The position numbers and the translations under genes are program-made. A model generated the notes under the pieces. It did not search any database, had not been told where the DNA came from, and worked only from the letters and a program-made list of their open reading frames with translations. Positions 1-34,595 of a stretch of DNA of 34,738 nt are shown here, piece after piece (position 1 is the first letter of the stretch; each line of letters opens with the position of its first letter). Source of the stretch: a virus (Duplodnaviria; Heunggongvirae; Uroviricota; Caudoviricetes); IMG/VR virus record IMGVR_UViG_2585427766_000001; one strand, given 5' to 3'.

Positions 1-42
1 TTAAGGGTTGTGGTATTACGCCTGATATGATTTAACGTGCCG

Positions 43-1155
43 ATGAATTACTCTCACGATAACTGGTCAGCAATTCTGGCCCATATTGGTAAGCCCGAAG
101 AACTGGATACTTCGGCACGTAATGCCGGGGCTCTAACCCGCCGCCGCGAAATTCGTGATGCTGCAACTCTGCTACGTCTGGGGCTGGCTTACGGCCCCGG
201 GGGGATGTCATTACGTGAAGTCACTGCATGGGCTCAGCTCCATGACGTTGCAACATTATCTGACGTGGCTCTCCTGAAGCGGCTGCGGAATGCCGCCGAC
301 TGGTTTGGCATACTTGCCGCACAAACACTTGCTGTACGCGCCGCAGTTACGGGTTGTACAAGCGGAAAGAGATTGCGTCTTGTCGATGGAACAGCAATCA
401 GTGCGCCCGGGGGCGGCAGCGCTGAATGGCGACTACATATGGGATATGATCCTCATACCTGTCAGTTCACTGATTTTGAGCTAACCGACAGCAGAGACGC
501 TGAACGGCTGGACCGATTTGCGCAAACGGCAGACGAGATACGCATTGCTGACCGGGGATTCGGTTCGCGTCCCGAATGTATCCGCTCACTTGCTTTTGGA
601 GAAGCTGATTATATCGTCCGGGTTCACTGGCGAGGATTGCGCTGGTTAACTGCAGAAGGAATGCGCTTTGACATGATGGGTTTTCTGCGCGGGCTGGATT
701 GCGGTAAGAACGGTGAAACCACTGTAATGATAGGCAATTCAGGTAATAAAAAAGCCGGAGCTCCCTTTCCGGCACGTCTCATTGCCGTATCACTTCCTCC
801 CGAAAAAGCATTAATCAGTAAAACCCGACTGCTCAGCGAGAATCGTCGAAAAGGACGAGTAGTTCAGGCGGAAACGCTGGAAGCAGCGGGCCATGTGCTA
901 TTGCTAACATCATTACCGGAAGATGAATATTCAGCAGAGCAAGTGGCTGATTGTTACCGTCTGCGATGGCAAATTGAACTGGCTTTTAAGCGGCTCAAAA
1001 GTTTGCTGCACCTGGATGCTTTGCGTGCAAAGGAACCTGAACTCGCGAAAGCGTGGATATTTGCTAATCTACTCGCCGCATTTTTAATTGACGACATAAT
1101 CCAGCCATCGCTGGATTTCCCCCCCAGAAGTGCCGGATCCGAAAAGAAGAACTAA
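43..1155 (+). CDS. insL: IS186 transposase (DDE, IS4 family)
   Basis: 370-aa product from ATG at 43 (the track ORF begins at an upstream GTG at 37). The sequence MNYSHDNWSAILAHIGKPEEL...YRLRWQIELAFKRLK matches my recollection of E. coli InsL; YRxRWxIE is the IS4-family C-terminal signature. Confidence 0.85.
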   Translation: MNYSHDNWSAILAHIGKPEELDTSARNAGALTRRREIRDAATLLRLGLAYGPGGMSLREVTAWAQLHDVATLSDVALLKRLRNAADWFGILAAQTLAVRAAVTGCTSGKRLRLVDGTAISAPGGGSAEWRLHMGYDPHTCQFTDFELTDSRDAERLDRFAQTADEIRIADRGFGSRPECIRSLAFGEADYIVRVHWRGLRWLTAEGMRFDMMGFLRGLDCGKNGETTVMIGNSGNKKAGAPFPARLIAVSLPPEKALISKTRLLSENRRKGRVVQAETLEAAGHVLLLTSLPEDEYSAEQVADCYRLRWQIELAFKRLKSLLHLDALRAKEPELAKAWIFANLLAAFLIDDIIQPSLDFPPRSAGSEKKN

Positions 1156-1303
1156 CTCGTTGTGGAGAATAACAAAAATGGTCATCTGGAGCTTACAGGT
1201 GGCCATTCGTGGGACAGTATCCCTGACAGCCTACAAAACGCAATTGAAGAACGCGAGGCATCGTCTTAACGAGGTACCGAGGCGTCGCATTCTTCAGATG
1301 GTT

Positions 1304-1326
1304 CAACCCTTAAGTTAGCGCTTATG
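1304..1326. repeat. IS186 right terminal inverted repeat
   Basis: CAACCCTTAAGTTAGCGCTTATG is the reverse complement of the repeat whose inner part opens the window. Indexing was checked against the stop codons of track ORFs 1130..1318 and 1315..1896. Confidence 0.8.
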
Positions 1327-1957
1327 GGTGTACCACCCCGCCAGGTGAGCAAAATCCCGCAGGGAGCTGTGTAGCGTGTTGCCGGACGGTCGACGATCTC
1401 CAGACATCTTCCTAAATGCTATTGAGGCGCTTTCGCCACCGCTGTGGTCGCTCGCCGCTGGCGTCGGCCACCCAATACGCTCTATCTCGGATATGCGGGG
1501 CACCGACGCCCGCAGCCGGAAACGGGACAAGCCCAAAGGCGTAGTCCACTGCTTCCACGTCAGTTTGTACAAGATCGAACCAGGCATTGACTCCCGCAAC
1601 CTGTTCGCCAAATACCAGCTTAGGGCGTCGCTCGCTGATGAGGTGGAATAGTGCTGGCCATAGGTGCCGCTCGTCATCAAACCCAGCGCCTTTACCAGCC
1701 GAGCTGAAAGGCTGGCACGGGCAACTTCCTGTCCAGACTGGTTTGTTATCCGGCCATCCGGCCAGACGCAGAGCATAAGACCAGACGCCGATCCCGGCGA
1801 AGAAATGGCACTGTGTGAATCCGCGCAAGTCGTCTGGTGCGACATCTTCGATACTCCTTTCATCAACTTCACCCGGGGCGATATGACCCGCAGCAATAAG
1901 GTTACGCAGCCATTGTGCTGCGTTAGGGTCTATTTCGTTGTAATAGGCTCCCCGCAC
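1327..1957 (-). pseudogene. Phage cytosine-5 DNA methyltransferase, C-terminally truncated by IS186
   Basis: Track ORF 1412..1957 carries C5-MTase motifs in canonical order: FFAGIGV (motif I-like), GSCPCQPFSSAGK (PCQ, motif IV), FGEQV (ENV-like, motif VI), HIRDRAYWV (motif VIII). The frame stops at 1412 and IS186 begins 85 nt further on, so the target-recognition domain and motifs IX-X are absent. Confidence 0.7.
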
Positions 1958-2223
1958 AATATCCCCTCCAGATTTTTGCTATCCAGCACCACTACGGTAA
2001 AGCCCAGCGCGCGCAGTCGTCCGTGTTCACGCAGTTGGCCGGCGCGTGGTGGCTTGCCGGGTGCTTTACATTCAACGAAAACGATACGACCACCGGGTAG
2101 CAGAACAATGCGATCTGGTACCGAGCGGCGACCGGGAGATATAAACTTAAAGGCCACTCCGCCAGCTTTTTTTACTTCAGCGACGAGGTGCTTTTCGATA
2201 AGGCTTTCACGTTCATAGGCCAT
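1930..2223 (-). CDS. VRR-NUC domain nuclease (PD-(D/E)XK superfamily)
   Basis: MAYERESLIEKHLVAEVKK...DRIVLLPGGRIVFVECKAPGKPPRAGQLREHGRLRALGFTVVVLDS; the E-x-K core and ~100-aa size fit VRR-NUC. Start taken at the internal Met that overlaps the upstream gene stop. Confidence 0.7.
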   Translation of the reverse strand: MAYERESLIEKHLVAEVKKAGGVAFKFISPGRRSVPDRIVLLPGGRIVFVECKAPGKPPRAGQLREHGRLRALGFTVVVLDSKNLEGILCGEPITTK

Positions 2224-2512
2224 CTGAATCCCACTCTTCAAAAAGCACATTCAATACCAGTTTCTCTGCCAACGCGTTTTCTGCACGTGCGCCGGCAGAG
2301 TACTCCCACTCTTTGAGCATATAAATCGTATCGGCACAGCGAAGCATTGCGAGGCAGATGTCCATGTACTGAGCCTGTGTCAAACCATCGGGTAAAGTTG
2401 CGGGGTTAAGCACAACATATCCCTTGTCCGTTAGCCTCTTTGCTGCGGAATGAAAGGCCGGGCGGTTAAATTGCTCGTAACCGCTCATCGGCCCGGCAAC
2501 GTAAACGATCAT
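2213..2512 (-). CDS. DUF4406 family protein (nucleoside 2-deoxyribosyltransferase-like fold)
   Basis: 99 aa starting MIVYVAGPMSGYEQFNRPAF, the typical DUF4406 N-terminus as I recall it. Its start overlaps the upstream stop by 4 nt. Confidence 0.6.
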   Translation of the reverse strand: MIVYVAGPMSGYEQFNRPAFHSAAKRLTDKGYVVLNPATLPDGLTQAQYMDICLAMLRCADTIYMLKEWEYSAGARAENALAEKLVLNVLFEEWDSDGL

Positions 2513-2724
2513 TCTTCGACCGCCTTACGCTTTTCACGCATATTCTGCATCAGGCAAAAATCAGATCTGCGTTCACTCCATTCCTGATTCAGTTCGTGAT
2601 GTGATTCGCGGTTGGCTTTTGCCCAGACCTTCGCTGCCCGGTCATATTCGCCGGATTGTTCAAGTCGCAAAGCCTCCCTTGCAGCCCTGTAATAAAGTGG
2701 ATTGTCCCGGTATTTAAATGACAT
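2509..2724 (-). CDS. Small hypothetical early protein (possibly ANR-like regulator)
   Basis: 71-aa ORF coupled between the DNA polymerase and DUF4406 genes; basic, helical. Family assignment from memory only. Confidence 0.45.
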   Translation of the reverse strand: MSFKYRDNPLYYRAAREALRLEQSGEYDRAAKVWAKANRESHHELNQEWSERRSDFCLMQNMREKRKAVEE

Positions 2725-2729
2725 AGGAG

Positions 2730-4793
2730 TTAATCCTTACGGTAGTGGTACGCCTCAAAACCGCCAGCGTTCAGTGGGATATCTGGCGCCCATTCGGGGT
2801 TAGTGGAGAGAAGCGCGGAAAGCGCTTTATCGTTGAAATCTTCTGTGTCAGGTGATTCGGTGATCACCTCGTCGTGTACCGTCAGCACAATGCTGTAACC
2901 GGCATCTTCGATAAGCGGCATGTTTCCGGCCAGAACGTCGCGGGCGGCCGCCTGGGTGACGTTCTCCACCAGCTTTCCGCCGTAGGTTTTGAGTCGTTGC
3001 CATTTACGCGAATAAGAGTTAACACCCATGTAGGTGATATTCCCTTGTTCGATAACCGGAGACGGGTAGCATACAGCGCGTCCGGATGGTAGCTGTATGC
3101 GCAGCCACGCGCCATCGCGGCGGATTTTAAGATAACCGCAATACAATGTTTTTTGCGGTGTGGCGATTGCTGTGCGGACGGTGCACTCCAGTTCGTACCA
3201 GAAATCACAGGTCGCGGGATGCGCCCGGCGCCAGAGACGTTTAAGTGAGTCGCAGGCGATAAATACCCGTTCAGAAAGCCCGTAGGTCGATTTACGTTTA
3301 ACCGATTCGTCGTACCAGCTTTTCGCCTCGCGGATAACATCGCGGGGAATGTTTGGCAGTGCGGCGTTCGCCAGCCCGTCGAGATCGAGACCGTAAACCA
3401 GAGCAAAAGTGATGAAAGCCGATACACCTCCTCCATAACCCAGACCGAGTTCCATGACTTTACCGATCTGACGCATGTGTTTATCAACATCATCTGGTGC
3501 AATATCGAAAGCTTTTGCATACGCCAGTTTATATAAGTCCGGACCCGTTCCGGCGTCGTACTCTCTGAATGCATTCAGTTTCCATTCTTCTCCCGCCAGC
3601 CATGCCAGCATACGGCCTTCAATGTTCGACAAGTCACTTACCACCAGCTTTTTGCCTGTTGGCGCGATAATGCAGCCACGTAACGCTGAACTGGTTAGTT
3701 CCATGATATTGTCAAACAGCAGGTCTGCACATCCGGCTTTCAGTGCTTCGATGCCTTCGTCTATTTGTTCCTGTTTTAGTGAAGGGCGGGGAAGGTTCTG
3801 GGGCTGGAATAGCCGTCCGGCCCAACGACCGGTACGTGACGCCCCGCAGAACTGTAGCGTACCGCGTAAGCGCCCGTCGTGGCTTACGCCTTTCATCAGT
3901 GCCTTGTATTTACTGGTGCTGGTAGTACTGGCCTGCAGGCGGATAGCCAGCAGTTCTTTCACGGCAGATGGTAAATCGGGGTCGGCAATACGACGTTCCA
4001 GAGTACTGCGTTGCATGTCTGGTAGCTCCACACCGTAGGATTCAACAATGTGCTTAATCAACGCGTCTCGTTGTGTGGCTGCCTGCACTTCGCCATCAGT
4101 CATTTCCTGTGTACGCTTTGCCAGGCGCTTTTGTTCCTGGTCTACCGCGTCGATCGCAGCGCGTGCGAGTTCCACGTCCATGCAGACGCCCCGGTCATTG
4201 ATCTGCTGATCACGATGCCAGAGCGCCAGTTCTGTCCCCTGATAATTCCACTTCGGCAGACGTTTATAGACTTCGCGCATTGCCTCGATATCCAGTCCGG
4301 CGTAAGCAACAAAGCGCCGCCATTCTTCCGGGTGGGTTTTGCTGGTGGCCCGGCGCAGTTTGCTGTTTTTCGGGCGTGGCTTACAGAACAGCTGGATCAG
4401 AGCTTTACCTTCTTTGTCCTTCGCTTTGTCTTGCGGGACGCCTAGTACTTCGCAGAGTTCCCCCAGAGCCCCCGGGAGACCGTGCGCCAGCGCCTGCACC
4501 ATCGTGTCGCGCCAACGTTCGACTGGCGGTGCCAGTCGCGGCATTGCATAACGCAGGACGGTGCGGTCGAAGTGAGAGTTATGAAAATAAAGCAGGGTTT
4601 CAGGGGCTGCGATTGCTTCGTATAAGCCGTGTGGAATACCACCACCGGCAGTGATATCCCATACGTTTACTGGCCCGTCGTTGATAGCCCATGCGAACAG
4701 CATCACTTCAACGCCTTCGGCATACGCATGGGTACCGTTCGTAATAGGGATTTCGCAATAGGTTTCCAGGTCGCCCCATAGTATATTGGACAT
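2730..4793 (-). CDS. Family A DNA polymerase with N-terminal 3'-5' exonuclease domain
   Basis: 687 aa. N-terminal WGDLETY (Exo I, D-x-E); polymerase motif B-like [16 protein letters not shown]; motif C LTVHDEV. Confidence 0.85.
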
Positions 4794-4839
4794 GTGTTTA
4801 CCTTGGTTTTTATTCTATTAACTGATTAAAAGATTAATT

Positions 4840-5469
4840 ATGCATATGATCCAATACTTGATTGACCATACAGAGCATCTGGAGAAAATAGCTGGATATA
4901 TTTTTTCATGTTTGATTGTTATGGGAGTCTGGATAAGAAAGATCATTTTTAATTATAAGTATAAAGAGCCTAAATATGTCAAGAAGTTAATTTTATATTT
5001 AGTTAAGTATGAACGTTATCTGGATAAGGAGGATAAGAGTGCCATAGAAAAAAGAATAAATGATAAAATTATTCGTGATGCGCTGAAATTGCAATCTTCT
5101 TATAACCGAAGTGATGTTATTTACATTTGCAATAGATTAGAAAAAAGACAGTATATAAATCAGGTGATTAAGCTTCAGAATTATATAGAGAAAGATAACG
5201 GAGTGTTTTTCATCAATGTTAATTTTTCAGGTTTTTTATTTATTATTAGTCGTCTGTTTTCCTTTCTGTGTTTTGTGCTGTTTATCCTTTTTTCTATTAT
5301 CTGCATTATTTCCATAGGGCAAAATGAAGGCCTTTTAAATTATCTTGTGTATATGGTTATGACAATAGTTTTAGAGACTGTTGGTTTTTGGATGTATGAT
5401 ACTTTCCCGTCTAAGAAGAAGATCTGTGAACTAAATAAAGAATTGAGGAAGATTAAGATTCCTGAGTGA
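4840..5469 (+). CDS. AT-rich hypothetical polytopic membrane protein (cargo gene)
   Basis: 209-aa ORF on the strand opposite to the surrounding operon. Hand count of three 60-nt lines gives about 27-32% G+C, against about 53% in a neighbouring polymerase line. One N-terminal hydrophobic helix (IAGYIFSCLIVMGVWI), a K/E/Y-rich segment, then C-terminal hydrophobic helices (FLFIISRLFSFLCFVLFILFSIICIISI, LVYMVMTIVLETVGFWMY). Confidence 0.6.
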   Translation: MHMIQYLIDHTEHLEKIAGYIFSCLIVMGVWIRKIIFNYKYKEPKYVKKLILYLVKYERYLDKEDKSAIEKRINDKIIRDALKLQSSYNRSDVIYICNRLEKRQYINQVIKLQNYIEKDNGVFFINVNFSGFLFIISRLFSFLCFVLFILFSIICIISIGQNEGLLNYLVYMVMTIVLETVGFWMYDTFPSKKKICELNKELRKIKIPE

Positions 5470-5487
5470 TTATACGCCTAATCAGCA

Positions 5488-5506
5488 GCCCGGTATTTAA
5501 CCGGGC
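5488..5506. other. Inverted repeat / hairpin between convergent genes
   Basis: GCCCGGT-ATTTAA-ACCGGGC palindrome between the 4840..5469 (+) and 5522..6070 (-) stops. No U-tract on either side, so not a canonical intrinsic terminator. Confidence 0.4.
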
Positions 5507-5521
5507 GTCTATGAAGTAGGG

Positions 5522-6070
5522 TTAAATCAGTGCTTCAGCATCAGCACCTTCGCTGATATCGTCGAAATCGTCAGCGCTTGCCACTCCGCCGCCAGCGAAT
5601 GCATCGCCGTCTCGCAGGAACTGGACTCCGCCGAGTGAGGCATTAATGCGTTTACCGAAATTATTGTCCTGTGCCCAGATATCGATAACGGCGTTTACAT
5701 AGCACCCTGCATAGGGACGTCCATCAGCCTGAATAAGTGGCGAACGATCGCGATCAAGAACAGCTGGGCGCGCTTTGTTAGCAGCATTCAGGAAGAAATT
5801 GCCGGGGAAGCCTTCATACTCTGCTTTTTCATCACCATCATGCAGGCACAGATTGAGTTTTTTCTCCAGTTGGTTATAAATGGGCTCCCACTTCTCTCCC
5901 CATTTTTCCTTCGCTACCTGCTTCATAGCTTTACGGATTTCTTCCAGTTGTGGGTGTTTGGGTGACATTAAAAATACTGCGGAGAAACGTGGATCGCCTT
6001 CGCCGTTTACAGTTTTAGCTTCAAACAGAGACGGGAAGGCCAGACGAACATTGTTCAGCTTCAGTTTCAT
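5522..6070 (-). CDS. DUF2815 family ssDNA-binding-like protein
   Basis: N-terminus MKLKLNNVRLAFPSLFEAK is typical of DUF2815; acidic SSB-like C-terminal tail DDFDDISEGADAEALI. Sits beside a DUF2800 gene, its usual partner. Confidence 0.7.
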   Translation of the reverse strand: MKLKLNNVRLAFPSLFEAKTVNGEGDPRFSAVFLMSPKHPQLEEIRKAMKQVAKEKWGEKWEPIYNQLEKKLNLCLHDGDEKAEYEGFPGNFFLNAANKARPAVLDRDRSPLIQADGRPYAGCYVNAVIDIWAQDNNFGKRINASLGGVQFLRDGDAFAGGGVASADDFDDISEGADAEALI

Positions 6071-6085
6071 GGGTATTTCCTTAAA

Positions 6086-7387
6086 TCAGATGAGGTCTGC
6101 GGTTAGCGTATCGTCGGATACGTCGTCGAAATCATTTACAGGGTTGATATTGAGTGCGGGGCGTGGGTCTGACTCGGGAACGATGGTGGGTTTACCATCA
6201 GCTCGTGTTATCAGTGCCTCGACTTTTGACCAACGGCGCGGACTGGCCTTTTTGATAAGTTTTTCGGCTTTTGTGGGGCTAATAAGTTTAAAGTCGAATA
6301 CTTCTTCAGTTTTGTACCTGAACTGGTCCTTCAGAAGTGCGCGAGCTGCCTCTTCATCACTCCAGGCCCGGTTACCTTGTTTTCCTGTTACCAGTTTAAA
6401 CCCCGGTACCGGATGTCCGGCATTGAGTTCATTGTGAACCCGGTCTCGTACTGCCTTTAGCCAGGATTCAATAAAGTCGGCCTGGCTATAGATCTCCGCA
6501 AGCTGCTCAATGGTTAACAGAGGTACACGTGCGCTGGCATTGGAGATTATTTCGCTGACAGGCTTTGTCAGATCTTCAAAATCGCTGGCCGCTGTTTGTA
6601 AATGCTGCATTTTCTGGGCAGTGCAAATAGCTTTTGCTTTACAGAAGCGGCACTGTTTTTCTCCAGGTATGAAGTTTTCCAGCGGTAGTGTCTCAATGCC
6701 TTCGCATTCAGCAATATTGAGAACAAGGATCGCACTGGTTGCGGCCTCCAGTGCCCGTTCACCGAAAGACTGAAGTTCCTGTACGGTTAACGACCATTCT
6801 GAAACGTGGTTGAGCCTTGGCTGGTGAATAAATAATCTTACAGTCTCAAAGTCATACAGCATGCTGAATTGTTCGAGCGCACCCAGAGCATACAGTTGTA
6901 GTTGCTCATTTTGTTCTGCATCAATGCGGACGCCTTTGCCATATTTCAGGTCGTGGATTTGTAATTCGCTACCAGCAATGATTATGCCGTCGGCAGTTCC
7001 GAAAGATTCTTCCACACCCGTTATATGTGAGAAATCAACACGTTGTTCAACCAATAGTTCATTATTCTGTGCAAGAGTCCAGACCGTATCAACATACCGG
7101 CCAACGGCTTCGACCATTTCATCATCCACCTGTGGGCCAGATGTATCATTAGGATTTTCGCGAAGGGGGTATGAGCCGAGAAACATAGAAACATTGCATC
7201 CGGCGTAGTGTTCCGGGTAGCTTTGCCTGTTTCGTAGAACTTTTTCAGCAAGCGCGTGCGCTGCAGTGCCCTCGATTGCAAAAGTTGTTTCTTTATCCGG
7301 TTGTGTGGCCTCCAGCGCCAGACTTCCTGGGCAGCGCATCCATCGATGCGCTGATGATGGAGAAAGTTGTGCATGAACGTCTGGCAT
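6086..7387 (-). CDS. DUF2800 family PD-(D/E)XK nuclease (Cas4/RecB-like)
   Basis: N-terminal [15 protein letters not shown] signature; C-terminal Cys cluster [10 protein letters not shown]. Confidence 0.75.
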
Positions 7388-7389
7388 GA

Positions 7390-8292
7390 TTAACCCTCCA
7401 GTGCTTTTTCAGCCAGGGTGATTACTTCAGCGAGATTTTCATCCGTTACTTCACCAAGTTTCCTGGCTCCCTGTTTTTCCAGAATTGCAATAGCTTCTGC
7501 CCGGTAACCCCCTTTTGCTAACTGGAGGATCAACCCTTCAGCTTGTTTGCGTAGTGCCGCGAAATCAATTGTATGGTCATCTTTGGCGTCATGATTCTGG
7601 CTGGAATTTGCTGCGTCTCTGCGTGCAAATTCTTCTTGCAGCTGAAGGTACTCAACACGGTTGATCTCGATATGGCCTTTTTTCAGCATCTCGTTCAACT
7701 TGCGTAAGGTGTGGAGTTCACTGGCTGCTGTGCCGGATACATTTTTGGCGTAAAACGGCCCCGTGCGTTCTCCATCTTTGTTACTGGCCTTTTTCGGCTT
7801 AACTTCATCACGCCCATCCGCAGGTGCATCAAGTAGCTGCTCGGCAAAAACACGTCGCTCGCCGATGGTTGGCAGGTCGTCCCAGAACTTAAGGATGTTA
7901 CGGGACAGGTCCAGGAGAGCAGGTTTAAGCAGCGCCCTGGCTCGTTTGACGCCCTGCAATGCGCTGTCGAGAGCATCAATCTGAACTACTCGTTTATCGC
8001 CTTCAGCATCACGGTAGGCAACAGCACGTTGCAGCATGTCTTCTGTGATAGGGGTGGCTACCGGGTAGAAACCAGCCAGTGCGATAACGTCGCTGAACTC
8101 CAGATCATCCAGTGTCATTGCCGCTGACATATTTTCAGTTTCAGTTGCTGTATCCCGACATTCCTGCACTCGTGAAATCGTGTCAGGATGCATAACAATG
8201 CCTGATGCCATTGTGCGGATAAGACGTTCAAGCAGCGCATTATGTTGTGCCAGAAGTTGATTATTAAGTTCGAGACTGGTTTCTAAACTCAT
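7390..8292 (-). CDS. Hypothetical early-left protein
   Basis: 300-aa ORF coupled to its neighbours; acidic and helical; no motif I can name. Confidence 0.5.
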
Positions 8293-8471
8293 ACTGTGGT
8301 CCTCGCTACAAGGAGAATGAAAGTGATGATCAGACCGAGCGCAGTGGCAACGGCCAGACCGGTCATCAAATCGAAGTTTTTACGGCGATAACGGAGAACA
8401 TCGCGCCCCGTCAGTCGATGGAGGTATTCAGGTTTCATCGGTTGTATTCCTTTTTTCATATCGGGGAGCAC
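8289..8471 (-). CDS. Small hypothetical membrane protein, first gene of the leftward operon
   Basis: 60 aa: basic N-terminal half, then one hydrophobic helix LMTGLAVATALGLIITFILLVA. Stop overlaps the downstream start. Confidence 0.5.
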   Translation of the reverse strand: MLPDMKKGIQPMKPEYLHRLTGRDVLRYRRKNFDLMTGLAVATALGLIITFILLVARTTV

Positions 8472-9477: not shown

Positions 9478-9521
9478 TTATGCGATATCGTATTTATATG
9501 CGTTATGGGATTTTGTGTTAA
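9478..9521 (-). promoter_or_regulatory. Candidate leftward early promoter (PL-like) overlapped by operator-like repeats
   Basis: On the minus strand: TTAACA (-35, plus 9516-9521), 17-nt spacer, TATAAA (-10, plus 9493-9498). Two copies of TATGCG(A/T)TAT(C/G)G overlap it (TTATGCGATATCG ~9478; ATATGCGTTATGG ~9496); a third (TTATGCGTTATCG) lies in the cI-cro intergenic region. Confidence 0.45.
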
Positions 9522-9605: not shown

Positions 9606-10280
9606 TTAGTACATACGTAGCGCGGATTTGGCGATCCCCGCCACGTAATGGATTTTTTCAATGTTTTCGCGTGGTACTCTGACTGGTGGATGATCTTCAT
9701 TTACAGACATTAGATGGAACAGGCCATCGCGTTCGAACAAGAAGGTTTTAACCATGACCTCACCTTCCCGGGTAACCACAAGTACTTCATCACCAGGAGT
9801 GTAGTCGTGGTTGGGTTCGACGATTACGAACTCCCCCTCTTTGATTCTAGGCATCATTGAATCACCAACACATTTCAGGGCGTATGCATCTTCATCCTTT
9901 GTCGGCCAGTATATGAAACCATCACTGCTACCTACTGAATATTGGGTGTCGCTCCAAAGTCCTCCAACGCCTAGCTGAGTGTTTCCCAAAACAGGTACTT
10001 TATTAAACCTAAGAGAAATATACGTTTTTATACCTGTCGCGTCCTCTTTCTCCATTTCTTGAAGGCTCCTTTCTGCCAAGTCTATTGGTGACACGTGGAA
10101 GTAGTCGGCGATCTGCTTTAACGTTGCGTATTTCGGATCTTTCACCTCTCCTGATACCAGCCTGTGTAGCGTTGGTTGGTTCAGCTGTAACCGACGTGCC
10201 AGCTCAGTTATCGAGCTTATCTTGGCTTTGTCCATCAGGTACTTGATGTTTTGAGAAAGGATATCGGTAGTATCAATCAT
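9606..10280 (-). CDS. cI: CI-like repressor (HTH_XRE + S24/LexA-type autopeptidase)
   Basis: N-terminal helix-turn-helix ISSITELARRLQLNQPTLHRLVSG; C-terminal S24 domain with catalytic Ser in CVGDSMMP and a downstream Lys (EVMVKTF). Divergent from a Cro-like gene. Confidence 0.85.
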   Translation of the reverse strand: MIDTTDILSQNIKYLMDKAKISSITELARRLQLNQPTLHRLVSGEVKDPKYATLKQIADYFHVSPIDLAERSLQEMEKEDATGIKTYISLRFNKVPVLGNTQLGVGGLWSDTQYSVGSSDGFIYWPTKDEDAYALKCVGDSMMPRIKEGEFVIVEPNHDYTPGDEVLVVTREGEVMVKTFLFERDGLFHLMSVNEDHPPVRVPRENIEKIHYVAGIAKSALRMY

Positions 10281-10421: not shown

Positions 10422-10622
10422 ATGTCCGGACTAACACCACAAGAGATGGTCAAAAGCTTGATTGATTCAGGGTATACCCAAAACCAAATTGCCGAAATTG
10501 CAGGCGTGAAGCAGTCTTCTATTAGTCGGCTTCTTACCGGGGTTCATTCTGACCCTCGCTTTTCTACAGTACGTGCGATAGAAAAACTTTTTCAGGAAGT
10601 GACAGCTAGACAAAAGGTGTAA
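10422..10622 (+). CDS. cro: Cro-like HTH regulator
   Basis: 66 aa with HTH YTQNQIAEIAGVKQSSISRLL; divergent from cI and first gene of the rightward operon. Confidence 0.75.
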   Translation: MSGLTPQEMVKSLIDSGYTQNQIAEIAGVKQSSISRLLTGVHSDPRFSTVRAIEKLFQEVTARQKV

Positions 10623-10625
10623 CCC

Positions 10626-12812
10626 ATGTCCGATAGCAAACCATGGGGAGCTACGCCTGATGAGTGGTTTCATTTCGACCTGGTATTGGGGCGGACTGCT
10701 CATCTTCTCCCAGTTGTATGTAACCCCAGTGCGACCATATCCCCTGATAGTAAATTGAAAGCGTTGGGTAAGACGCCGAGTCGCTATAACCGGGACCGCC
10801 AGGTCACAGGTATTGCTCAATGGACCGGGCATGTTGTTACTGAGCATGATTTTGCCCGCTGGTCGAATGAACCGGATTATGGCATCTGCGTGCGTACAGG
10901 CCATGGCTGGCTGGCGCTGGACTGCGATAGCGAAGATGAAGACATTCAGGCAGATATTCGCAAAACACTTGTGCAACTTCTGGGTGAGTCGCCGCCGCGA
11001 CGCTGGCGAGCAAACAGTAATAAGTGTCTGTATCTGCTGGCCGTTGATGGTGATTTCCGTAAGCGTATCCATCGCCTGGCGGGGGATATGGGCATTATCG
11101 AGTTGCTGGCGAACGGGCAGCAGTTCGTTGCCTGTGGTACGCACAGCAGCGGCGCGCGTATTGAATGGGACGGTGGTTTGCCGGATGAACCTCCGGCTAT
11201 TACAGGTGAGCAGCTTGAAACGCTGTGGCAGCGCCTGGCTGAACAACTCCCTGTGTCGGTAACCACCGAAGCGGGCAACACGAAGATGCGCGACCGTTCA
11301 GCATTCACGCCCGGCGCGACGGATGATACAGCTGAATATCTTGATGCCAATGGCTGGACGCTGCTGGATGGCGCAAACGGTGAACGATATATCCGCTGTC
11401 CGTTTGAAGACGGCCACAGTAGCGGAGGCGATCCAACAAGCACAGTTTATTTTCCTGCGGGAACCGCAGGCTTTGAGCAGGGGCATTTTAAATGCCTGCA
11501 TGCCAGTTGCGCGCATCGTGATGACGGAGATTTCCTGAATGCCATCGGGATCCGCAACGACGATTTCGAAGATCTGACCAGCATCGAAGTGGCGGAACCT
11601 TTACCGCTGCCTGCTTTCGAGCGTGATAAATGGGGGCGTATCGAGGCAACCATCAGCAATGCAGCCAAAGCAGTAGTACGCTCTGATTTTGTGGACATCG
11701 ATATTCGCTTTGACCAGTTCCGCGACGAAATCATGTTTGCCCCGGCAGGATCCGGACAATGGCGGGCATTCACCGATGCGGATTATGCGCGCCTGCGCAT
11801 CACGATGGAAAAGCGGGGATTTAAACCTGTTGGCCGTGAACTTATTCGCGATGTGGTGTTACTTGCAGCCGATGAACAACCATTCGATTCAGCGATCACC
11901 TGGCTGAACGGACTGGAGTGGGATGGCGTGCCGCGCATCGAATGTTTCTACCATACGCACTTCGGTACCGCCGACACGCCTTATACCCGTGCGGTGTCTA
12001 TGTACATGTGGACCGCGTTGGCGGGGCGAGTACTGGAGCCAGGCATCAAAGCGGATATGGTGCCGATCCTCGTTGGTCCGCAGGGCTGCGGTAAGTCTTC
12101 CGGAGTGGAGGCACTGAGCCCTGATCCTGCGTTTTTTACTGAAATCTCTTTTGCCGAAAAAGACGATGATCTCGCTCGAAAAATGCGTGGTCGGCTGGTG
12201 GCAGAGATTGGTGAACTGCGCGGGCTTAATACCAAAGAGCTGGAGTCAATCAAAGCGTTTGTGACGCGTACTCACGAAAACTGGATCCCGAAATACCGGG
12301 AGTTCGCCACCCAGTTTCCTCGTCGCCTGGTGTTCGTTGGTACCACTAATGAGGACGAATTCCTTGCGGACAAGACTGGTAACCGTCGCTGGCTCCCCGT
12401 GGAAGTGTCGAAAGTCGACGTGAAAGCGATAAAAAGAGATCTCCTTTTACTTTGGGCTGAGGCTCGTGAGGTGTTTCAGCGTCTGGGGGGTATCCAGTTC
12501 CGTGAGGCTGAACAACTGGCAGCGAGTGTCCATGAACAGTACACCATCAAGGATGCTTGGCTTGAAACGGTAGAGAAATGGCTCGACACGCCCGACCTGA
12601 TGACTAATGAACTTCCGCGAAATTGCGAATTTTTACGCGCAAGTGATGTTTTGCGTGATGCGATTGGGCTAAATCCTGACCGCATCGGAAAACGCGAAGA
12701 AATGCGAATTAGTAATGTTTTGCAAAATTGCGGGTATAAGCGTGCCCAAAGGCGAATTGGGGGGAAAAAATGCAAGGTTTGGGAACCGCTGGAACCACGC
12801 GGAACCACCTAG
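10626..12812 (+). CDS. Replication primase/helicase fusion (prim-pol N-terminus, zinc finger, VirE/D5-like P-loop NTPase)
   Basis: 728 aa. Catalytic acidic cluster GWLALDCDSEDED; Cys/His zinc-binding CPFEDGHSSGG...HFKCLHASCAH; Walker A ILVGPQGCGKSS; Walker B-like RRLVFVGTTNEDE. Confidence 0.8.
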   Translation: MSDSKPWGATPDEWFHFDLVLGRTAHLLPVVCNPSATISPDSKLKALGKTPSRYNRDRQVTGIAQWTGHVVTEHDFARWSNEPDYGICVRTGHGWLALDCDSEDEDIQADIRKTLVQLLGESPPRRWRANSNKCLYLLAVDGDFRKRIHRLAGDMGIIELLANGQQFVACGTHSSGARIEWDGGLPDEPPAITGEQLETLWQRLAEQLPVSVTTEAGNTKMRDRSAFTPGATDDTAEYLDANGWTLLDGANGERYIRCPFEDGHSSGGDPTSTVYFPAGTAGFEQGHFKCLHASCAHRDDGDFLNAIGIRNDDFEDLTSIEVAEPLPLPAFERDKWGRIEATISNAAKAVVRSDFVDIDIRFDQFRDEIMFAPAGSGQWRAFTDADYARLRITMEKRGFKPVGRELIRDVVLLAADEQPFDSAITWLNGLEWDGVPRIECFYHTHFGTADTPYTRAVSMYMWTALAGRVLEPGIKADMVPILVGPQGCGKSSGVEALSPDPAFFTEISFAEKDDDLARKMRGRLVAEIGELRGLNTKELESIKAFVTRTHENWIPKYREFATQFPRRLVFVGTTNEDEFLADKTGNRRWLPVEVSKVDVKAIKRDLLLLWAEAREVFQRLGGIQFREAEQLAASVHEQYTIKDAWLETVEKWLDTPDLMTNELPRNCEFLRASDVLRDAIGLNPDRIGKREEMRISNVLQNCGYKRAQRRIGGKKCKVWEPLEPRGTT

Positions 12813-12970
12813 AAGAGAAGGTGGTTCCACCTTGCAGACCTTGTGGCAAGCGGGGCGGAACTACTGGAACCACTGGAACCGCCTTTCTACTAGAAACCCC
12901 ATATATATATAAGTCGATTGAGGGAAAGGTTAGGAAAAGGTGGTTCCAGGTGGGGGCAGGTGGTTCCACT
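12780..12970. repeat. Putative replication origin: iteron array (GGAACCAC unit) flanking an AT-rich element
   Basis: Direct GGAACC(A/G)C copies at ~12782, 12791, 12801 and ~12857, 12866, 12875 with 9-10 bp phasing; inverted GGTGGTTCC copies at ~12820, 12939, 12960; (AT)n run ATATATATATAAG at ~12901-12913. The array starts inside the last codons of the primase/helicase gene. Confidence 0.65.
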
Positions 12971-13098
12971 CCGAATTAGCAACTTTTTGCATGTTGATAC
13001 ATGCAATATGCGGATCGGAACTGCGTTATCCACACCCACGGATAAACAGACGTAGTTCTCAGAAAAATTTTTCGTAGCAAAACGTAGAGGTCAGAGCT

Positions 13099-13521
13099 AT
13101 GCGTAATATTCAACAGGTTTTAGAGCGCTGGGGTGGCTGGGCAGCGAGTGAAGGTGGTAGCGTCTACTTTCCTCCTGTTGCAGCCGGGTTTAAGAATCTG
13201 CTACCCGCGACGCAGTCTGGAAGGCTGAAATGCAGTGACAATGACGGTCTTATCATCAACTCCGCTATGAGCTGCCTGAAGAAAAAAGATCCGTATCTGT
13301 GCACGCTCCTTGAGTGGCATTACGTCCAGGCCATGCCCGTGCGGGCGATGGGTGAGAAGCTCGGCGTATCTCACACCCACGTTCTGAAGAGGCTTCAGGC
13401 GGCAGAGGGATTTATTGACGGTTGCTTAGCCATGCTGGATGTGGTGCTCGAAATGGATCAGTCGGTTCAGTCAAAGCCTCAGGCTATCAGGACTTTGCGT
13501 AGGAGCTGCTCGGCGGCATAA
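13099..13521 (+). CDS. Late-gene antiterminator, Q-like (Phage_antitermQ family, from recollection)
   Basis: 140 aa. MRNIQQVLERWGGWAA...AAGFKNLLP...LQAAEGFIDGCLAMLDVVLEMD resembles the short Q-family antiterminators of enterobacterial prophages; position upstream of a terminator and the lysis cassette fits. Confidence 0.6.
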   Translation: MRNIQQVLERWGGWAASEGGSVYFPPVAAGFKNLLPATQSGRLKCSDNDGLIINSAMSCLKKKDPYLCTLLEWHYVQAMPVRAMGEKLGVSHTHVLKRLQAAEGFIDGCLAMLDVVLEMDQSVQSKPQAIRTLRRSCSAA

Positions 13522-33396: not shown

Positions 33397-34595
33397 TGGC
33401 TCTGAACCTTGATTCTCTCGGTTTATCTGCAAAGGTAACCGCGGAGGGGATCAGTGCGCCTGATTATCAGACGATACTCAGCACCCTGATTAGCTATTTT
33501 CAGCAGATTTATGGCAGTGATGCCTACCTCGAACCGGATAGTAAAGACGGCCAGATGGTGGCTCTGATGGCGCTGGCGATTCATGATGCCAATAATACTG
33601 CGATAACTGTCTACAACTGTTTTTCACCGGCAACCGGCTATGGGGCCGCACTGACCAGTAACGTGAAAATAAATGGTATTTCACGTAAAGGCGCGACGAA
33701 TTCTACGGTTGATTTGCTTCTTACAGGAACTGCCGGAACAACCATCATTAATGGCAGCGTGAAAGACAGTAATAGTGTGATATGGCGTTTGCCTGCTTCA
33801 GTGGTGGTCGGCGTGGATGGTACAGTGATGGCGACCGCAACATGTTCCGTCAGTGGTGCAGTGGCGGCGCTGGCTGGAACTATCACTGAAATTAATACGC
33901 CAACCCGTGGCTGGGTTTCGGTAACTAATCCTGCTGCGGCTACTGTTGGCTCTCCGGCAGAAACTGATGCGGAGTTACGTATCCGCCAGTCGCAAAGTGT
34001 TGCGTTGCCATCAATAACCCCATTTGAAGCACTGGATGGTGCTGTTTCTAATGTTACCGGTGTAACCCGCCACAAACTCTATGAAAACGATACTGGTTCG
34101 GAGGACGGTAACGGGTTACCGCCACACTCTGTTGCTGTAATTGTGGATGGCGGTGATGTGATGGATATTGCTCAGGCTATCAGAGGGAATAAAGGCCAGG
34201 GGACAGCCACTCACGGTACAACATCCGTTACGGTTCCGGATAAATACGGCAATCCCCATGTAATCAAATTCTCGCGTTCCAGTGATGTGCCTGTTTATGC
34301 CCGGATTAAATTAAAAGTTTTTACGGGTTATACCTCACAGATAGGGCAGCAGATCCAGCAGGCTATTTCCGACTATATCAATAGTCTGATGATTGGTGAT
34401 TCGGTCCTTTTAAGTCGCATTTACTCACCGGCGAATCTTGGCGTGGTGAGTGGCGGGAATGCACGCTATTACGATATTCAGGAACTGACGATTGGGAAAT
34501 CTCCGGGGGCTTTGTCGTCATCAAACATTGATATCAGATACAACGAATCTGCGTCCTGTACCCCGGAAAATATCGTTATAACGGTGGAGTCATGA
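33396..34595 (+). CDS. Baseplate J-like protein (Mu gp47-like)
   Basis: 399-aa ORF in the canonical position after the gp46-like gene. Confidence 0.55.
   Translation: MALNLDSLGLSAKVTAEGISAPDYQTILSTLISYFQQIYGSDAYLEPDSKDGQMVALMALAIHDANNTAITVYNCFSPATGYGAALTSNVKINGISRKGATNSTVDLLLTGTAGTTIINGSVKDSNSVIWRLPASVVVGVDGTVMATATCSVSGAVAALAGTITEINTPTRGWVSVTNPAAATVGSPAETDAELRIRQSQSVALPSITPFEALDGAVSNVTGVTRHKLYENDTGSEDGNGLPPHSVAVIVDGGDVMDIAQAIRGNKGQGTATHGTTSVTVPDKYGNPHVIKFSRSSDVPVYARIKLKVFTGYTSQIGQQIQQAISDYINSLMIGDSVLLSRIYSPANLGVVSGGNARYYDIQELTIGKSPGALSSSNIDIRYNESASCTPENIVITVES

Follow-up and report, generated by a model that had tools for sequence, protein, structure and literature searches.

A probable Pri-Rep-ori-type replication origin adjoining a primase-helicase gene in temperate Escherichia coli prophages

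Directly behind the primase-helicase gene of a tailed-phage sequence, IMG/VR record IMGVR_UViG_2585427766_000001 (34,738 nucleotides, analyzed whole and called the window below), lies an array of short repeats, which raises the question of whether the phage starts its replication there and which protein would recognize the repeats. An iteron origin at 12780–12970, bound by the product of the adjacent gene (10626–12812), had been predicted from the letters of the sequence. We find the core of this original prediction well supported: 12782–12991 is very probably a Rep-bound replication origin of the Pri-Rep-ori type, as found in pathogenicity islands of Staphylococcus aureus (SaPIs) and phage-inducible chromosomal islands (PICIs), because the adjacent protein is homologous to SaPI Rep, the geometry of the array is conserved in about 80 relatives, and the repeat class covaries strictly with the wing of a DNA-binding domain predicted at the C terminus of the protein. 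The predicted extent fits the array itself, but the module runs on to about 12991.

The repeat array and the adjacent gene

Exact matches to GGAACCRC number 11 in the 34,738-bp window, versus 2.48 ± 1.39 in shuffled sequences (0 of 100 shuffles reach 11), and eight of them crowd into 186 bp at 12782–12967: those on the plus strand start at 12782, 12791, 12801, 12866, and 12875, and those on the minus strand start at 12821, 12940, and 12960. The "at least nine copies" first counted are reached only by including a copy with one mismatch (GGAACTAC at 12857); a tenth copy, at 12950–12957, is degenerate. With its flanks, the iteron consensus reads cTGGAACCACCt, and a scan of all 7-mers over the whole window found none besides the iteron that reaches five or more copies within 250 bp.

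The array is ordered as three direct copies and one inverted copy, three direct copies at 9-bp spacing, a 57-bp core, and two to three inverted copies at 10-bp spacing. The outer group of three direct copies (12782–12808, plus strand; GGAACCGC at 12782, GGAACCAC at 12791 and 12801) overlaps codons 719 through 728 of the gene, and the outer inverted iteron (12821–12828, minus strand) forms a perfect 10-bp inverted repeat with 12801–12810 across an 8-nt spacer. Nearer the core are the inner-left iterons (12857–12882, plus strand; GGAACTAC, GGAACCAC, and GGAACCGC) and, on its other side, the inverted inner-right iterons (12940–12967, minus strand; copies at 12940 and 12960, with the degenerate one at 12950). 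Measured spacings of direct copies are 9 and 10 bp in the outer group and 9 and 9 bp in the inner-left group, in agreement with the 9- to 10-bp phasing that had been predicted, and the right-hand inverted set is spaced at 10 + 10 bp.

The core between the inner sets (12883–12939, no strand) is a probable DNA-unwinding element. It holds an (AT)5 run, ATATATATATA, at 12901–12911; the 30-bp segments starting at 12880 to 12900 are among the least stable 1.3 to 2.9% of the whole window by nearest-neighbor energy; and its sequence (...AACCCCATATATATATAAGTCGATTGGGGAAAGGTTAGAAAA) is retained between iteron classes whose iterons differ. The AT run had by itself been proposed as the unwinding element; it is present and easily melted, but it is only part of the conserved ~57-bp core.

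To the right of the array, the motif TTTTTGCA (12984–12991, plus strand) is conserved at a fixed distance and likely marks the right edge of the origin module. Of 82 distinct loci, 62 have its general form, T(T/A)TTGC(A/G), at +73/74 from the AT run, with what follows downstream being of at least three unrelated kinds, and a Burkholderiales relative has the motif as well; it could be a priming site or simply the edge of the origin. Overlapping this motif, immediately after the origin, is an 8-bp perfect palindrome, TTGCATGT-N4-ACATGCAA (12987–13006), at whose position relatives have a different, imperfect palindrome, TTGCAGGTAGCGATATGCAA. A perfect DnaA box (TTATCCACA, 13026–13034) lies ~60 bp past the last iteron, but we do not count it as a part of the origin: DnaA boxes occur at chance level across the window, and this one is found in only 20 of 95 related loci, where it moves with the leader module of Q.

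The adjacent gene (10626–12812, plus strand) encodes a putative initiator of 728 aa, in which comparisons with Pfam, PDB, and Foldseek recognize a Prim-Pol primase and a VapE-type (superfamily 3-like) helicase; a C-terminal winged helix is predicted. Residues 48 to 185 match Pfam Prim-Pol (PF09250; E = 5.5e-10, 40.4 bits against a cutoff of 22.8), and residues 427 to 639 match the Pfam VapE-like domain (E = 2.4e-60); no NCBIfam model matches the protein. By sequence, the sole solved relative is PDB entry 7PDS, the complex of SaPI1 Rep with DNA, which matches query residues 393 to 657 (phmmer E = 7.5e-34). A full-length AlphaFold2 model (mean predicted local distance difference test score of 74) aligns with 7PDS along the whole chain (Foldseek E = 2.7e-20, about 450 columns, with the helicase ~22% identical), and its further Foldseek matches are African swine fever virus PrimPol, NrS-1, monkeypox virus E5, and the pRN1 prim-pol (1RNI). 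The predicted C-terminal fold comprises a helix (644–653), a short strand, two more helices (672–680 and 689–701), and a hairpin (704–711/714–721), which is the topology of a winged helix; the predicted DNA-binding domain occupies codons 644 to 721 (12555–12788, plus strand), with the hairpin strands forming its wing.

A Pri-Rep-ori replicon of the SaPI/PICI type requires an initiator with a Rep-type (VapE/D5-like AAA+) helicase, a primase encoded upstream of that helicase or fused to it, and, directly 3′ of rep, iterons that are opposed in direction across an AT-rich center, with two or more per side. This locus has such a helicase, a fused primase in the form of PF09250, and opposed iterons at 12857–12882 and 12940–12967 around 12883–12939.

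Related loci with other iterons

The layout just described is kept in about 80 distinct related loci, drawn from viral contigs, genomes, and phage records (and labeled L013, L014, etc.), which include E. coli prophages, Yersinia phage YeP4, APSE-1, and Caulobacter phage Jess A. The repeats of 82 distinct downstream regions share the form TG-NNN-C(C/A)ACCT and fall into at least 10 variants (GGAACCAC, GTAACCAC, GTTACCAC, GTATCCAC, GTCACCAC, TAGACCAC, GTACCAAC, GTCCCAAC, TAGACAAC, and GTAACAAC). Positions were compared in 78 distinct regions, those whose (AT)n run has four units or more. In every iteron class, the direct inner-left copies end at −34/−25/−16 from this run; the inverted inner-right copies start at +27/+36–37/+46–47, and the outer group lies at −100/−90 (direct) and −70 (inverted). 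The inner-left sets of the 78 regions contain a single inverted copy, in L086, and direct-strand matches within inner-right sets arise solely because the GGAACC/GGTTCC core is near-palindromic.

This plan extends to distant relatives. The protein of YeP4 is 73% identical to that of the window and is followed by the same layout after its stop codon, built from another repeat, AGACAACC; APSE-1 has an equivalent plan with GTAACAACC iterons; and Jess A (L107, 3420–3700), a GC-rich alphaproteobacterial phage whose protein is 46% identical, combines the same layout with the iteron TGTAACCACCT. Because so distant a phage as Jess A shares both iteron family and layout, the constant CCACCT half of the iteron is ancient. 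Relatives from Xenorhabdus, Photorhabdus, and APSE (L091 to L093, L100, and the APSE records) resemble the 728-aa protein only from about residue 312 onward, i.e., in the helicase and C-terminal half; their N-terminal part is diverged or of another kind, although the APSE-1 gene is still one long coding sequence. The layout is unchanged despite this difference, and the origin layout therefore follows the helicase/winged-helix half of the protein.

Two observations concern individual relatives. In APSE-1, the coding sequence annotated "P4" (NC_000935, 3445–3666; L105, 2861–3082) covers the AT-rich core plus the right-hand GTAACAACC iterons, and this hypothetical protein is probably a spurious open reading frame (ORF). 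In five other loci (L024, L028, L032, L039, and L042), the arrays are mixed between −3 and +180 from the stop codon, with GTAACCAC in the outer group and GTATCCAC mostly in the inner ones; all five have the wing motif VLKVW, which suggests either that one base is read less strictly or that the origin is recombinant. We found no earlier description of this origin for enterobacterial phages or APSE in the literature searched, which does not prove that none exists.

Covariation of the predicted wing with the iterons

Among 69 distinct proteins, mutual information with the iteron class is concentrated at residues 707–708, 710, and 715–719, which make up parts of both strands of the predicted wing, whereas the putative recognition helix (689–701) is nearly invariant. 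The highest values fall on K-C-K-V-W (codons 715 to 719; 12768–12782, plus strand), in the second strand of the wing, making this pentapeptide the candidate specificity determinant. Wing pentapeptide and iteron class correspond one-to-one over 84 distinct proteins (mixed GTAACC/GTATCC arrays being counted as one class). The closest backbone, compared over residues 1 to 700, gives the right class in only 35 of 74 cases, and within a class the wing motif is constant on backbones down to 76% identity.

Examples of the wing-iteron pairs, borne on near-identical backbones, are KCKVW-GGAACCAC, VQRVW-GTAACCAC, LMKVW-GTTACCAC, MTRIF-GTACCAAC, KMRIF-GTCCCAAC, QQRVF-TAGACAAC, and QIRVW-TAGACCAC. Three loci (L014, L016, and L073) are 98 to 100% identical to the window in nucleotide sequence at 10670–12770 and again from 13002 onward, but only 40 to 75% identical between. 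The L014 protein has four differences in residues 1 to 714, all N-terminal, and then reads MTRIF followed by EAVSQPVPTSK, versus KCKVW followed by EPLEPRGTT in the window, with GTACCAAC in place of GGAACCAC as the iteron; after residue 353, the two proteins thus differ only at 715–719 and in the nonconserved tail past W719. Loci of the same class carry 3 to 11 synonymous codon differences in the 25 codons compared and still keep the wing motif, which argues for selection in addition to linkage. At position 719, tryptophan or phenylalanine tracks C or A at one position of the iteron. As a general rule for CCAC versus CAAC iterons, this holds in the 69-sequence sample but fails in APSE-1, which combines tryptophan with GTAACAACC.

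From these comparisons, specificity appears to be set mainly by wing residues 715–719, and wing residues and iterons appear to be exchanged among relatives as a cassette of ~230 bp. The allelic series points to the five-residue wing strand as the specificity determinant. A more ambitious version, in which residues 715–719 and not the recognition helix suffice for specificity, at least 10 wing-iteron pairs are mutually orthogonal, and the cassette is selected against cross-talk between co-resident phages and satellites, is a tentative proposal, and taking all of its parts jointly we lean slightly against it. The near-isogenic pairs, which differ only in the wing strand, the unconserved tail, and the iterons, amount to a natural experiment on how a winged helix reads DNA, and the series is a possible source of orthogonal replicons.

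The position of the first iterons inside the gene had been read as tying the origin to its initiator. The ORF (10626–12812) does end in ...KVWEPLEPRGTT*, its last 10 codons (719–728) and stop spanning the first three iterons, but the overlap is incidental, because the stop position floats and the encoded tail is conserved in neither length nor sequence. In most relatives and classes, the stop codon coincides with the first iteron or slightly precedes it (tails WVSA*, FEPV*, and FVKQ*), and in the class of the window, the frame stays open for nine codons more. Two members of this class (L013 and L062) have a frameshift that moves the stop to +24, ~8 codons further into the array, with tails LEPPKREGGSTLQAL and LEPPKSEGGSPSQPL; the iteron-encoded tail is therefore dispensable. 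Only 3 of about 10 copies are coding in any case, and, given the floating stop codon and unconserved tail, we reject iterons inside the gene as a functional feature. The tie between origin and initiator is one of adjacency and of co-inheritance of wing and iterons.

Mechanism, rival readings, and phage context

SaPI Rep is the model from which, by analogy, we draw every step of the proposed mechanism. The Rep proteins of SaPIs form stable hexamers and are self-loading initiator-helicases whose C-terminal winged helix binds 5- to 6-nt iterons directly downstream of rep; the origin has an AT-rich center with at least two iterons on each side in opposed directions, Rep binds and melts it independently of ATP, and loading is believed to involve two hexamers, one per side (PMC9371898; PMC7581432). 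By this model, the 728-aa product of 10626–12812 would form hexamers, and its C-terminal winged helix would bind the 9-bp iterons through their core, TGGAACCAC. The convergent triplets (direct at 12857–12882, inverted at 12940–12967) would set a hexamer at either flank of the 57-bp core, the (AT)5-containing core would melt, and the helicase would load onto the single strands, the initiator acting as a self-loading helicase. The fused Prim-Pol would then prime, and the family-A DNA polymerase encoded at 2730–4793 (minus strand) would probably extend, while the outer group (12782–12828) would serve as an auxiliary Rep-binding site.

The likeness to SaPIs (SaPI1 Rep1 and SaPI5 PriRep5; PMC9371898) extends to the homologous helicase core, the predicted C-terminal winged helix, the primase fused as in SaPI5, the origin directly 3′ of the gene with opposed short iterons around an AT-rich center, and the allelic specificities of initiator and iteron. 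Unlike a SaPI, which is a satellite island, the element here is a complete Enterobacterales temperate phage with cI/cro/Q control and its own DNA polymerase, its iterons are 9 bp long with a constant CCACC/CAACC half, and it has an extra outer group at the stop codon. A second case, from the same host species, is EcCICFT073, a PICI of E. coli, whose pri-rep-ori drives autonomous plasmid replication, as SaPI segments have also been shown to do, and places two iteron sets around an AT-rich region after pri-rep (PMC6092414); it, too, is a satellite island and not a phage. Replicons of this kind have been described before in satellite islands of staphylococci and E. coli; here, one serves a complete temperate phage. 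The self-loading Pri-Rep-ori replicon of staphylococcal islands is, on this evidence, also used by full temperate phages of Proteobacteria. SCCmec (staphylococcal cassette chromosome mec) elements offer a further parallel in Cch2, a D5/VapE-like helicase that loads itself and has its binding sites, direct repeats, just downstream of its gene (PMC7581432), but those are three 5-nt iterons only, the polymerase-primase is separate, and the element is not a phage.

Several points weigh against placing the origin at 12782–12991. Iteron binding, melting, and initiation are ascribed to the 728-aa protein by analogy. The AT-rich core is short (its AT run measures 11 bp, and the spacer that holds it, 57 bp), and the AT-rich center of SaPI origins is considerably longer. 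The wing codons lie 0 to 40 bp from the iterons, and much of the covariation could therefore stem from physical linkage alone. In satellite phage P4, the iterons that follow the primase-helicase gene directly on its 3′ side constitute crr, which is needed in cis but is not where synthesis begins, and the window may not hold the whole prophage, in which case a second site could lie outside it. This parallel speaks for an alternative that we consider unlikely, namely, that Rep binds the array as a cis element for crr-like enhancement, copy control, or autoregulation and that synthesis starts elsewhere in the phage: P4 crr (4291–4590) is directly 3′ of alpha, with the annotated ori ~2 kb upstream of it, and the outer group at 12782–12828, which has no AT-rich center, indicates that at least part of the array may be auxiliary. 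Against such an arrangement, the inner triplets enclose a core that is conserved and easily melted, as in the tested SaPI and PICI origins, and no second iteron cluster exists anywhere in the 34.7-kb window. A small CGGTAAC cluster at 33919–34121 sits in a structural gene.

A role in transcription, with the repeats as a terminator, roadblock, or operator for another regulator, would suit an array placed between an early gene and Q (13099–13521) whose inverted iterons fold stably as a single strand (z = −3.8). We nevertheless judge it very improbable, below the cis-element alternative: consensus scans of 12400–13400 find neither terminator-like nor promoter-like sites, the cI/cro intergenic region lacks the iteron, the array sequence covaries with the Rep wing, and the array travels with the primase-helicase gene rather than with Q, the downstream genes being different in YeP4, Jess A, and many other loci. 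Least probable of all is that the repeats are sites of a different protein (a host factor or a partition or packaging protein) or a functionless product of chance or coding constraint. The perfect DnaA box nearby is the point in its favor, but that box belongs, as noted, to the Q leader; all 142 E. coli matches are chromosomal, and the RefSeq annotation of the matching 27 kb includes no partition-type product; the small terminase gene is ~3 kb from the array; and chance is excluded by the shuffles and the 7-mer scan, while the few coding copies and the unconserved tail speak against coding constraint. A Pri-Rep-ori origin at 12782–12991 accounts best for these observations.

Other known origin types fit less well. 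P4 alpha also joins primase, helicase, and C-terminal origin-binding domain in one polypeptide, and its 8-bp "type 1" repeats are direct and inverted, some at 9-bp spacing, with one cluster directly 3′ of alpha; its origin-binding domain we take to be a winged helix (PDB 1KA8). Membership in the alpha family is nevertheless rejected by sequence, there being no detectable similarity to the 728-aa protein (BLASTP E = 0.68), and by Pfam content, alpha consisting of zinc ribbon, Toprim, and D5 (D5_N/Pox_D5) domains and the protein here of Prim-Pol and VapE. P4 moreover requires two separated cis sites, ori and crr, whereas the window has one cluster only. The Pri-Rep of EcCICFT073 is itself described as distantly related to P4 alpha (PMC6092414).

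Lambdoid origins of the O type (lambda O, P22 gp18, and phage L gp18) share with this one a location in the early right operon, between cro and Q, modular phage-specific alleles of initiator and iteron, and an origin that overlaps the initiator coding sequence; their iterons, however, are ~11 to 20 bp long and occupy a mid-gene position in O (PMC8022706). Here, the first iteron begins at codon 719 of 728 and most of the others lie past the stop, and the initiator has its own helicase, so that this is not an O/P-type origin. The O protein lacks a helicase and brings in DnaB from the host by way of P. Nor is it an iteron plasmid origin of the RepA/pi/TrfA kind, which combines iterons of 17 to 22 bp, a helicase-less WH1-WH2 Rep, and conserved DnaA boxes: here, the iterons are 9 bp long at 9- to 10-bp spacing, the initiator is a helicase, and the DnaA box is present in 20 of 95 relatives.

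The host element is a temperate E. coli prophage of the myovirus type. The window is part of an E. coli chromosome, as a prophage 100% identical to that of strain 2011C-4251, and the repeat region turns up in 141 of 5,426 complete E. coli genomes, O103:H2 and O45:H2 strains among them. The array offers a concrete, testable origin for this prophage family, which also takes in Yersinia phages and the aphid-symbiont phage APSE and in which the stretch lacks an origin annotation and contains at least one doubtful ORF. At the E. coli locus, RefSeq lists only a "VapE domain-containing protein" and an "antiterminator Q family protein," with nothing annotated between. Genes are ordered as an S24/helix-turn-helix cI-like repressor (9606–10280, minus strand), a Cro-like helix-turn-helix protein (10422–10622, plus strand), the 728-aa gene, the repeats, and the Q antiterminator, and no second replication gene lies between the 728-aa gene and Q. 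Because the element has its own polymerase in addition to lysis, terminase, head, and contractile-tail genes, we regard it as a complete temperate phage; lysis, terminase, portal-like, head, sheath, and DNA polymerase genes likewise set it apart from a PICI or SaPI, and baseplate-region genes are also present.

The first ~8,300 nucleotides of the window (~1–8300, minus strand) hold a replication/repair module that comprises the family-A DNA polymerase, DUF2815, DUF2800, VRR-NUC, a DEAD-box helicase, and a cytosine methyltransferase; with such a module on board, the replisome may be largely phage-encoded once initiation has taken place. Inside this minus-strand operon, but on the other strand, lies an ORF of 209 aa (4840–5469, plus strand), which coincides with the least stable and most AT-rich DNA of the window (4796–5429) and has the look of an accessory gene that was inserted. 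At 9479–9513, just downstream of the gene for the cI-like repressor, an 18-bp sequence, TATGCGATATCGGATTTA, is repeated in tandem in 1.9 copies.

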